In this document: positions 38,743-40,884 of the stretch, piece after piece
Layout of the letters: every line of letters begins with the position of its first letter
Position numbering within the stretch: position 1 is the first letter of the stretch
Origin: an uncultured candidate division Zixibacteria bacterium
GTDB taxonomy: Bacteria; Zixibacteria; MSB-5A5; SM1-73
Reading direction: 5' to 3'
Assembly: GCA_903908285.1 (NCBI GenBank)
Contig: CAIVRH010000009.1
Span: 7,537 to 71,536 of the forward strand
DNA: 64,000 nt
Program-made: the position numbers and the translations under genes
The notes under the pieces: generated by a model
Told to the model about the DNA's origin: nothing
Databases searched by the model: none
Seen by the model: the letters and a program-made list of their open reading frames with translations, nothing else

Positions 38743-40884
38743 ATGAAAAGTTTGGTGTCTCTTAAAACAATCATTTCGGTCATTTTAGTTTTTTTACTTG
38801 TGGCTATTACCGGAATCGGCGGAAGAAATTACCTTAAAGCTGAAGATTTATCTGTTACACTAAAAGCTGGTGAATACCGGATTATCGATGATGAAAAGGG
38901 ACAGCAGAAAGTTAAAATGGACGGTTTCGGCAATCTATTGGTACCCGGTAAACCAATGTTGCCTGCAAAAACCTTCATGATCGCCATTCCTCCGGGAGCC
39001 AAGGTTCTTTCGGTAACCACTAATAGTCCCGCATCTACTCTGATTCCGGGACAATATAATATTAAACCAGCACCGGCAGTTTTACCTTCTGACGACCGGG
39101 AAGAAGTAATAAAAGAGAGTCATGCGAAATGGAAAAACAACTATGAAGTGACCTATTCCTCGGACGAGGCCTATCCCGGTTTTACCGGGATTTATCAAGG
39201 CACCGGAGGATTGAGGAAATACTCCTTTGTCCGGGTAGCGTATTTCCCCTTTTCCTACCACCCTCAATCCGGCAGATTAATGTACTCACCATTCCTCACT
39301 GTTTCTATAAGTTACAGCCCTGTTTCCACTTACGACCAGAAATATGATGAGTTGATGTCCGACACCAAGGCAGATCAGCGTGCTTCGCAACTATTTGAGA
39401 ATTTTCTTCAAGCCAAGGCATGGTATCCCACCATACCAGGAATAAAATCTCCTAAAGAAACATATGATTATTTAATTATTACTACGGACGCTTTAACCAA
39501 TGCTTTATCTCCTTTGGTAGAATGGAAAGATTCCATCGGTTATAGTGTGAATGTGGTGACCACTTCCTGGATACAAAACAATTACCCCGGTGTGGATCTG
39601 CAGCAGAAGATCAGGAACTTCCTTATTGATAAATATATGGTGTGGGGTACAGAGTACCTTCTTTTGGTGGGAGACAATGCTAGCATTCCCATGAGACGTT
39701 GTTACCCCAATCCCTCCGATCACAGTTCTGGTTCGGAATATTCTCCCCCCTCCGATTATTATTATGCGGATCTAACCGGAAGCTGGGATGCGGATGGGGA
39801 TGGGTTTTATGGAGAATATGGTCAGGACAGTGTCGATTTTGTTCCGGAACTATCGGTGGGACGCATCCCTTTCAGTGATTCGGCTTCGGTGTTTACTATA
39901 TGCCAGAAACTGGTAAGGTTTGAAAAAGACGTCTCTTCCTGGAAGAATAACGCTTTGCTTCTCGGTGCCATGAGCAACTATGCCAATGAAGACGAAACCG
40001 GATTGCCCCGTACCGATGGAGCTGTTTTGATGCAAGAGATGATTTCCGATATGCTGGTGGGCTGGAGCTACACGACCATGTACGAAAAAGCCGGTCTTGA
40101 TTCCAGCTCCTATTCGTGCGATTATCCTCTTAGTTGGACTAATGTTGTCAGCAACTGGTCGGCTAACGATTATGGTGTAGTAAACTGGTGGGCGCATGGC
40201 GGTTATGATGCCGCCTGGAGGAAGTGGTGGTACGGGGATGACGGGAATGGAATTCCGGAAAGCTGGGAGATGAATTGGGAAGCTTTCTTTCAGAATTCCG
40301 ACGCTACCTCCTTGGACGATAATCATCCCGCCATCATCTTCTCCTGTTCCTGTGATAATGCCTGGCCTGAGAAGAACAATCTGGCCAAGACACTATTGAA
40401 AAACGGATCTGCCGGGATCGTTGGAGCCACCAGAATTTCCTGGTATAATGAGAACTGGGAAGACGAATCGTCCGGGGGAAATGCGTCCATGGATTATTAT
40501 TTCTATTATTATCTGATCCATCAACGGGAAAAAGTCGGGGATGCTCTTTTTTCCGCCAGGGTTTATTATCTAAACCATCTCTTCTGGTCGCTGAATGACC
40601 CCGATTGGACCCCGCAGGCCAATATGCTTGATTTTTGTCTGTATGGTGATCCGTCTTTGGTGAGAGAATGGATCTCCTCCTATACCTGTGGTGATTGCAA
40701 CCGGGATGGGAATATAGACGTCGGTGACATAATCTATCTAATAAACTATCTGTATAAAAACGGCCCGGTTCCCGATCCCTGGCAAGCCGGAGACGTTCTT
40801 CCGGACGGGGTGGTTAATATCAGTGATGTGATCTATCTGATCAATTATATGTTTAAAGCAGGTCCTCCCCCCTGTGAGTTGTAA
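38743..40884 (+). CDS. Secreted C25 (gingipain-family) cysteine peptidase with propeptide and C-terminal dockerin
   Basis: ATG at 38743 after RBS GGAGG. Propeptide (G.P.LP), YLLLVGD, SDYYY.DL, VGRIP, catalytic AHG and SCSC. Terminal GDCNRDGNIDVGD / GDVLPDGVVNISD repeats. Confidence 0.85.
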   Translation: MKSLVSLKTIISVILVFLLVAITGIGGRNYLKAEDLSVTLKAGEYRIIDDEKGQQKVKMDGFGNLLVPGKPMLPAKTFMIAIPPGAKVLSVTTNSPASTLIPGQYNIKPAPAVLPSDDREEVIKESHAKWKNNYEVTYSSDEAYPGFTGIYQGTGGLRKYSFVRVAYFPFSYHPQSGRLMYSPFLTVSISYSPVSTYDQKYDELMSDTKADQRASQLFENFLQAKAWYPTIPGIKSPKETYDYLIITTDALTNALSPLVEWKDSIGYSVNVVTTSWIQNNYPGVDLQQKIRNFLIDKYMVWGTEYLLLVGDNASIPMRRCYPNPSDHSSGSEYSPPSDYYYADLTGSWDADGDGFYGEYGQDSVDFVPELSVGRIPFSDSASVFTICQKLVRFEKDVSSWKNNALLLGAMSNYANEDETGLPRTDGAVLMQEMISDMLVGWSYTTMYEKAGLDSSSYSCDYPLSWTNVVSNWSANDYGVVNWWAHGGYDAAWRKWWYGDDGNGIPESWEMNWEAFFQNSDATSLDDNHPAIIFSCSCDNAWPEKNNLAKTLLKNGSAGIVGATRISWYNENWEDESSGGNASMDYYFYYYLIHQREKVGDALFSARVYYLNHLFWSLNDPDWTPQANMLDFCLYGDPSLVREWISSYTCGDCNRDGNIDVGDIIYLINYLYKNGPVPDPWQAGDVLPDGVVNISDVIYLINYMFKAGPPPCEL

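Follow-up and report, generated by a model that had tools for sequence, protein, structure and literature searches.

A gingipain-family peptidase from a Zixibacteria bacterium carries the general dockerin of its genome and may dock on cohesins anchored by type IX secretion

How would a gingipain-family peptidase be held at the cell surface when its last module is a dockerin, and is that dockerin made for one particular partner? The question is raised by a gene in a 64,000-nucleotide stretch (hereafter the window) of contig CAIVRH010000009.1, assembly GCA_903908285.1, from an uncultured bacterium of the candidate division Zixibacteria. The gene (38731..40884, + strand; taken from the list of open reading frames (ORFs) and the Pfam architecture) encodes a 717 aa C25 peptidase with a dockerin; the deposited copy of the protein is identical and starts at the second Met (38743), giving 713 aa. 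We find that this dockerin is a tag used throughout the genome, probably for retention. An initial reading of the DNA (the sequence-only reading) had stated that it matches the dockerin of an M14 carboxypeptidase encoded in the same window, and a match specific to that enzyme was not borne out. With moderate confidence we favour a two-tier display, in which the secreted C25 zymogen docks on cohesin receptors that are themselves anchored through a secretion system of type IX (T9SS).

Three Pfam domains bear out the claim that a dockerin stands at the C-terminus of a C25-family peptidase. The protein opens with a signal peptide or membrane helix (38731..38838, + strand, approximately residues 1-36, hydrophobic stretch TIISVILVFLLVAITGIGG), whose cleavage site is placed by inference; in the AlphaFold2 (AF2) model, residues 11-30 form a helix and 30-35 a linker of low confidence. 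The prodomain, Propeptide_C25, occupies 38890..39372 (+ strand, residues 54-214, Pfam E 4.9e-9), and the RgpB pro-domain 4ief_A is matched by profile. The catalytic domain, Peptidase_C25, lies at 39469..40659 (+ strand, residues 247-643, Pfam E 3.8e-53), where the match to PF01364 reaches 181.5 bits (cut-off 23) and extends over profile positions 1-372 of 374. Some ten linker residues then lead to the dockerin (40687..40875, + strand, residues 653-715) and the stop codon. The module, a type-I-like dockerin of two repeats, is recognised by Pfam Dockerin_1 (PF00404, residues 654-707, E 1e-9; 38.9 bits, the cut-off being 22.9), by PDB dockerins on both sequence and fold (8x39), and by a hidden Markov model (HMM) of the genome's own dockerin family. 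Translation of 40681-40884, the 3′ end of the ORF, gives YTCGDCNRDGNIDVGDIIYLINYLYKNGPVPDPWQAGDVLPDGVVNISDVIYLINYMFKAGPPPCEL followed by the stop. No T9SS sorting domain was found in the protein with PF18962, PF13860, PF13585 or our own HMM of the sorting C-terminal domain (CTD). Thus, unlike RgpB and Kgp of Porphyromonas gingivalis, the protein has neither an immunoglobulin (Ig)-like domain nor a T9SS domain after the catalytic domain, which argues against PorU-mediated covalent anchoring to A-type lipopolysaccharide (A-LPS); retention would instead be non-covalent, via the dockerin.

Alignment A1, comprising 40 C25 homologs, was the source of both the PDB profile search and the AF2 model. 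The profile matched gingipain R (4ief_B, E 1.4e-10; 1cvr_A, E 3.2e-10) and the RgpB pro-domain. The profile was needed, as a single-sequence PDB search with the C25 protein found no gingipain and had a dockerin as its sole match. The AF2 model is confident overall (mean predicted local distance difference test (pLDDT) 90.1, predicted TM-score (pTM) 0.89). Searched with Foldseek, it retrieved RgpB (1cvr, E 2.3e-17, target-normalised TM-score (TMt) 0.61) and Kgp (4rbm, E 3.1e-13); its prodomain retrieved the RgpB and Kgp prodomains (TMt approximately 0.6-0.65; RgpB 4ief_A/C, TMt 0.65) and its last 70 residues the Clostridium thermocellum dockerin 8x39. A gingipain-like fold is thus supported, for the predicted model, in both the catalytic domain and the prodomain. 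The sequence-only reading had pointed to the His of an AHG motif and a Cys of SCSC as active-site residues, and both proved to be conserved: His489 (in WWAHGG, codon 40195..40197, + strand) and Cys541 (second Cys of SCSC, codon 40351..40353, + strand) are invariant in 40 of 40 sequences of A1. The putative nucleophile Cys541 aligns with RgpB residue 244, which we take to be the known catalytic Cys244. The assignment of His489 as putative catalytic His relies on its invariance and the HG motif and not on alignment to RgpB His211. Like RgpB and Kgp, therefore, the protein combines a prodomain with a caspase-like catalytic domain and a predicted His/Cys dyad, alike in profile and predicted fold; unlike them it has a His-to-Cys spacing of 52 residues (33 in the gingipains) and shares only approximately 15% identity on structural alignment. 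Since profile, conserved residues, AF2 model and fold matches agree, we assign the gene product, as a predicted secreted zymogen, to the cysteine endopeptidases of the gingipain family (MEROPS C25, clan CD).

The C25 family also contains the T9SS sortase PorU, and one could imagine that the domain is a PorU-like sortase or processing enzyme, held by its dockerin and maturing other surface proteins. PorU is indeed the best NCBIfam match of the protein (E 6.8e-8), and its structure 6za2 is among those retrieved by fold (E 1e-5). We regard this role as very improbable and have rejected it on the NCBIfam, genome and fold scores. All NCBIfam matches of the protein are below threshold (PorU 30.6 bits against a cut-off of 420; the GC-type dockerin 23 against 29), a genuine PorU scoring 770 bits is encoded elsewhere in the genome, RgpB and Kgp fit the fold far better than PorU (E 1e-17 against 1e-5; TMt 0.61 against 0.12), and the prodomain is of gingipain type.

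The M14 carboxypeptidase with which the dockerin had been paired is encoded at 10241..13621 on the - strand (1126 aa; Peptidase_M14 at residues 113-336, E 1.7e-42; CarboxypepD_reg; Dockerin_1 at 1064-1117, E 5.3e-7), its dockerin lying at 10244..10435 (- strand, residues 1063-1126). We also note that its residues from approximately 800 to 1050, between a CARDB-like region and the dockerin, form a long stretch to which Pfam assigns nothing (…KPILFVDDDGGMAYESYF…). The sequence details on which the pairing had been based are present on translation. Loop 1 of the C25 dockerin, DCNRDGNIDVGD (40693-40728), has V-G at positions 10-11 and loop 2, DVLPDGVVNISD (40792-40827), has I-S, whereas both M14 loops, DVTGDMKIDIGD and DVECSGRVDIGD, have I-G; the helices that had been quoted are also as claimed, and the AF2 model of the C25 protein predicts helices at 664-675 and 697-708. 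At the Ca-ligand positions 1, 3, 5, 9 and 12 the C25 dockerin has D, N, D, D, D in loop 1, which is canonical, and D, L, D, N, D in loop 2. Its Cys residues are Cys653 and Cys656 at the start of the module and Cys715 at its end; the M14 dockerin has the majority pattern of the genome, with Cys at loop-2 position 4 and at the terminus.

These likenesses have to be judged against the other dockerins of the genome. We searched the window's own assembly (3.33 Mb, 48 contigs, 95% complete), in which a six-frame Pfam search gave 125 dockerin matches and an iterated HMM, seeded with the C25 and M14 dockerins of the window, gave 134 dockerin proteins, 122 of them with the module within 15 residues of the C-terminus. 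The family has the consensus GDANgDGviDIGDVVYLINYLfKnGpaPxPlxaGDvNCDGvVDvGDVVYLINYLFKgGPpPC. In clostridial type I dockerins, specificity is set by positions 10, 11, 17, 18 and 22 of each repeat. Here 96 of the 134 proteins have I-G or V-G at positions 10-11 of repeat 1 and 92 have it in repeat 2, positions 17-18 are mostly I-N, and position 22 is K or R in approximately 90%. Both repeats fit this signature in 85 of 134 dockerins. The C25 dockerin (VGINK/ISINK at the five positions) and the M14 dockerin (IGINK/IGLNK) both belong to this majority class, and it is thus plausible, on these residues, that the two bind the same cohesin type.

A dedicated unit would require more than this. In its strongest form, the C25 and M14 dockerins would be a matched pair that brings an endopeptidase and an exopeptidase to the same cohesin for sequential action; the shared majority signature, the distance of 25 kb between the two genes within one window, and the precedent of P. 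gingivalis, where gingipains and the carboxypeptidase CPG70 act in sequence at the cell surface (PMC5445135), all speak for it. We nevertheless consider it improbable. The two dockerins are 62% identical, an ordinary value when the mean of all pairs in the genome is 55%; the M14 dockerin is only the 28th of 133 nearest to that of the C25 enzyme, and the latter is the 53rd of 133 nearest to the former. It is on these identity ranks that we reject a specific pairing. One strong consensus runs across some 134 proteins, so the likeness is generic; 85 of them share the signature, and any pairing of these two enzymes would be common to around 100 other proteins, at least 21 peptidases among them. 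The Cys topology differs as well, with an N-terminal Cys in the C25 dockerin and a loop-2 Cys in that of M14, and around the two C25 orthologs examined, which have different neighbours, no M14 gene was found. Sequential endo/exo action of the two enzymes may be envisaged by analogy only.

The Cys residues divide the family further. The terminal Cys (of a ...PPPC ending) occurs together with a Cys at loop-2 position 4 in 67 of 134 dockerin proteins and with one immediately ahead of the first GD in 27, the C25 enzyme included. This alternation in the position of the second Cys suggests that the dockerins may be clamped by disulfides of either of two topologies; the pattern in the C25 dockerin could form a clamp between its N- and C-termini.

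What the dockerins are attached to was determined from Pfam scans of all 134 proteins (E <= 1e-5). The peptidases comprise nine C25, three S8, two each of M14, C1 and M28, and one each of C10, M1 and M6; there are in addition one PAD_porph enzyme and one protein of beta-lactamase fold. (The PAD_porph family, PF04371, includes agmatine deiminases as well.) FG-GAP repeats occur in 21 of the dockerin proteins and SBBP propellers in seven, with beta-helix/NosD domains and Ig-like stalks in others, and the sole glycoside hydrolase among the listed cargo families is one GH116. Since peptidases and FG-GAP/propeller proteins dominate, against a single GH116, the cargo is proteolytic and adhesive, not cellulolytic. 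A direct search for C25 paralogs found eight in the genome, six with a dockerin, one with a T9SS domain and one truncated by a contig end. Single-linkage BLAST joins 74 of 134 dockerin proteins via shared accessory regions, and there may thus be an unnamed domain common to them.

The set of enzymes is a familiar one. P. gingivalis exports and anchors C25 and C10 peptidases, CPG70 and PPAD via T9SS domains; CPG70 trims off the Arg or Lys that gingipains leave at C-termini, and PPAD has C-terminal Arg as its target (PMC5445135). The dockerin cargo of the present genome (nine C25, two M14, C10 and PAD_porph) mirrors this T9SS cargo (gingipains, CPG70, PrtT/periodontain and PPAD). The enzyme classes C25, M14, C10 and PAD-type are thus those that P. 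gingivalis attaches covalently through T9SS.

Candidate partners for the C25 dockerin are encoded in the same genome, as judged by Pfam, HMM and predicted fold. Cohesin modules are found in at least ten proteins, six of which also bear a T9SS sorting domain. Two exceed the Pfam Cohesin cut-off: the 795 aa product of C6:3345-5732 (54 bits), with cohesin in three stretches, an internal dockerin of divergent sequence, and a T9SS domain, and the 789 aa product of C21:5389-7758 (49 bits), with cohesins and a consensus C-terminal dockerin. The product of C6:6052-8136 has a weak Pfam Cohesin score and combines cohesin, dockerin and T9SS domain. Four further proteins (C3:10672-11922, C15:131735-133264, C39:150962-153976 and C39:154216-158370) have the order consensus dockerin, cohesin-like module of approximately 120 aa, T9SS domain. 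In the 805 aa product of C39:49159-51576 a tandem of two atypical dockerins leads directly into a cohesin-like module at the C-terminus; this protein is without a T9SS domain and is possibly a soluble adaptor. Iterated searches contributed it, together with C3:32680-33666, which is cohesin-like, and a few weaker candidates.

The identification of the less obvious modules relies on an HMM built only from orthologs in other genomes, which matches the Pfam-recognised cohesin of C6:3345-5732 at E 2e-9, and on predicted structure. The product of C3:10672-11922 (locus L041:10670-11917) combines, within 416 aa, a signal peptide and a consensus dockerin with a T9SS sorting domain and a module of cohesin fold that escapes Pfam. 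It has at least 45 full-length orthologs (43-79% identity) named as Zixibacteria 'T9SS type A sorting domain-containing protein', and a few relatives have a precomputed PF00963 match. Its AF2 model has a pLDDT of approximately 90 over residues 205-315, and the module resembles solved cohesins with TMt 0.65-0.72 (2vn5_A, 6kge_A, 5nrm_A; the Archaeoglobus fulgidus 2xdh, TMt 0.67). Because one protein holds both a dockerin and a cohesin, proteins of this type could chain head-to-tail, or their own cohesin could stay occupied until another dockerin displaces the internal one. A second, divergent dockerin class (e.g. GDINQNGYPFEVGDAVSLAGYL...) stands beside cohesins in C6:3345-5732, C6:6052-8136, C11:6401-7198 and C21:5389-7758; its presence on scaffold-type proteins suggests at least two specificity tiers, by analogy with type I and type II in cellulosomes.

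The machinery that would place these receptors on the surface is also encoded, SprA (711 bits) and the PorU described above both scoring above curated cut-offs. With our CTD HMM, sorting domains of the T9SS are detected in 72 proteins, and six of these contain a dockerin as well. We therefore consider it likely, given cohesins fused to T9SS domains and the presence of PorU and SprA, that docking is non-covalent, and arrive at the following scheme. A Sec signal peptide would move the C25 protein out of the cytoplasm, and the RgpB-type prodomain, going by its family, would hold the enzyme latent until removed; catalysis would fall to His489 and Cys541, on the strength of their conservation and correct alignment. 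The T9SS would export the cohesin-bearing receptors and anchor them covalently on the outer membrane, where the peptidase would dock by its dockerin in a Ca-dependent manner. Display together with the M14 enzyme, other peptidases, and FG-GAP and propeller proteins would then produce a protein-degrading, cellulosome-like surface assembly.

Several observations weigh against this scheme. Loop-2 position 3 of the C25 dockerin, a Ca ligand that is Asn in 102 of 134 dockerins, is Leu in this one alone; the second Ca site may in consequence be weakened, a point that the sequence-only reading had missed. Its closest orthologs keep the CGDCN...PPC pattern and have N or T at the position of the Leu. 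The number of dockerins (around 134) is large compared with some 15 recognised cohesin modules. A high dockerin-to-cohesin ratio is, however, normal in true cellulosomes. As to how the dockerin proteins cross the outer membrane, the genome has four secretin genes, at least one of them in an operon that resembles pilMNOPQ, judging by gene sizes alone. A type II secretion system (T2SS) route was considered for the dockerin proteins and could not be established, the inspected secretin being in this likely pilMNOPQ operon.

The same imbalance in numbers could be taken to mean that the module works without cohesins, as a dockerin-like, Ca-stabilised tag that either directs export or sorting or binds a non-protein component of the surface, with the conserved terminal Cys as its functional element. 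The position of the tags would suit this idea: 122 of 134 stand at the very C-terminus and in most of them ...PPPC comes 0-5 residues before the stop, much as in sorting tags, and they outnumber the cohesins by a factor of approximately 10. Dockerins of unknown function are moreover widespread outside cellulosomes (Peer et al. 2009, as reported in PMC8542988). We nonetheless think it unlikely. Cohesin modules are present, conserved and fused to surface-anchoring T9SS domains; some scaffold-type proteins have an internal dockerin adjoining a cohesin; the ratio, as noted, is one that cellulosomes also have; and across the phylum dockerins are more numerous where a cohesin relative is found. For the last point, 81 sampled genomes of the phylum, all in one class, were searched. 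Pfam dockerins are found in 80 of them, from 3 to at least 69 per genome, and a single-sequence search found relatives of the cohesin module in 40. The median number of dockerin matches is 54 in genomes with such a relative and 17 in those without (Mann-Whitney p = 7e-7, a test that ignores kinship and search sensitivity).

Docking on T9SS-anchored cohesins, the reading that we prefer, also has a bolder version, in which the dockerin proteins are not just retained by the cohesin receptors but exported with them. Dockerin-cohesin-T9SS carriers, such as the family of C3:10672-11922, would bind tagged enzymes in the periplasm and the folded cargo would cross the wide SprA translocon piggy-back, one receptor class thereby sufficing for more than 100 enzymes. 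This extension strikes us as doubtful. Were it true, the switches of C25 peptidases from T9SS domain to dockerin described below would be a move from direct to indirect use of the T9SS.

A further proposal had been that the dockerin takes the place of a T9SS domain, with a survey of the C-termini of C25 homologs as the means of checking it. We carried out this survey over the 120 closest homologs (source names Candidatus Zixiibacteriota, WOR-3 and TA06) and found a dockerin in 73, a T9SS domain in 32 and something else in 15. Homologs keep the C-terminal dockerin down to approximately 40% identity. A maximum-likelihood tree of the 120 catalytic domains requires at least three switches between dockerin and T9SS domain, with the two modules strongly clustered and the window protein inside a well-supported clade in which all members have dockerins. 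The proposal thus stands insofar as relatives in sister lineages end in T9SS domains and switches have occurred. It has to be qualified as to what was replaced, since dockerin-bearing homologs are approximately 705-775 aa long and those with T9SS domains approximately 830-1250 aa with extra domains; the change must therefore have involved more than a swap of the last module.

The closest described system is the cellulosome-like complex of Candidatus Stygibacter (Cloacimonadota), inferred entirely from genomes, which has C-terminal dockerins on GH18, GH57, S8 and gingipain-like C25 proteins and a cohesin scaffoldin with a T9SS C-terminal domain (Williams et al. 2021, PMC8542988). The two systems have in common signal-peptide enzymes with C-terminal dockerins, a T9SS-anchored cohesin protein and an uncultured host of the Fibrobacteres-Chlorobi-Bacteroidetes (FCB) group. 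They differ in that the present host belongs to Zixibacteria and has approximately 134 tagged proteins, with a cargo dominated by peptidases and one glycosidase only; its cohesins are distributed among at least ten proteins, small or medium in size, whereas Ca. Stygibacter has one scaffoldin of 3755 aa with carbohydrate-binding modules (CBMs).

Comparison with the clostridial type I dockerins (Xyn10B-CipA, 1ohz/2ccl, C. thermocellum; 2vn5, C. cellulolyticum) reveals a similar layout of two 22-residue repeats of predicted Ca loop and helix. The near-identical repeats are compatible with a dual binding mode, as in clostridial type I, and the candidate partner modules are likewise predicted to have the cohesin fold. 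The recognition residues are however [IV]-G, I-N and K, as against S-T and the rest in Clostridium, and the dockerins here have a conserved terminal Cys together with a Cys in loop 2 or at the N-terminus. The cargo is proteolytic and not carbohydrate-active, and the host is a diderm with T9SS, whereas clostridial cellulosomes belong to Gram-positive cells with SLH or sortase anchoring. The modules resemble non-cellulosomal ones (Peer et al. 2009; for example the A. fulgidus cohesin 2xdh) in occurring outside cellulose degraders and on proteins that are not glycosidases; those modules are reportedly few per genome and mostly of unknown function, while here there is a large coherent family with cohesins fused to a surface-anchoring signal. 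Pfam scans of six of the cohesin-bearing proteins found neither CBM2 nor CBM3. In view of this, and of one GH116 compared with 21 or more peptidases, the assembly is no cellulosome sensu stricto, although it would probably function like one.

The C25 gene stands alone in the window. Upstream of it is the series gap, an ORF of 384 aa, pgk, tpiA and secG, which is classical but for this ORF; the ORF between gap and pgk (34554-35708) has no Pfam match at E <= 1e-6. Downstream, convergent on the 3′ end of the C25 gene (41154-46392, - strand), are a sigma-54 response regulator and two GAF-domain histidine kinases, one of which has its own receiver domain. The position downstream of secG is not conserved in the two C25 orthologs checked; orthologs have other neighbourhoods, often beside other dockerin genes. 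A scan for promoters and terminators around the C25 gene gave results at chance level. Around the M14 gene are five genes for large, secreted T9SS-domain proteins (FlgD_ig / Por_Secre_tail) at 5048-8218, 8316-9914, 13809-15683, 15781-17547 and 17679-21074, two of them NosD/beta-helix proteins. Our sequence HMMs detected no cohesin in the first of the five (1056 aa).

The dockerin-tagged C25 peptidase and the T9SS-anchored scaffoldin are both already published, for Cloacimonadota (PMC8542988). Homologs of the present protein are already annotated publicly as C25 peptidases or dockerin-domain proteins. With its architecture annotated publicly and described for a sister phylum, the single C25 gene is in itself of modest value. 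In our literature search we found no paper that mentions both Zixibacteria and dockerin. In anoxic sediments, exported peptidases of C25 type are both abundant and transcribed, and the lineages to which exported peptidases have been assigned there include Zixibacteria (PMC6365825). If docking on T9SS-anchored cohesins is correct, Zixibacteria would degrade protein with more than 20 exchangeable peptidases bound at the surface, and the assembly would be the cellulosome's proteolytic counterpart. One superphylum would then hold two interchangeable solutions to surface display, and the dockerins and cohesins of these bacteria would constitute a large natural source of orthogonal parts.

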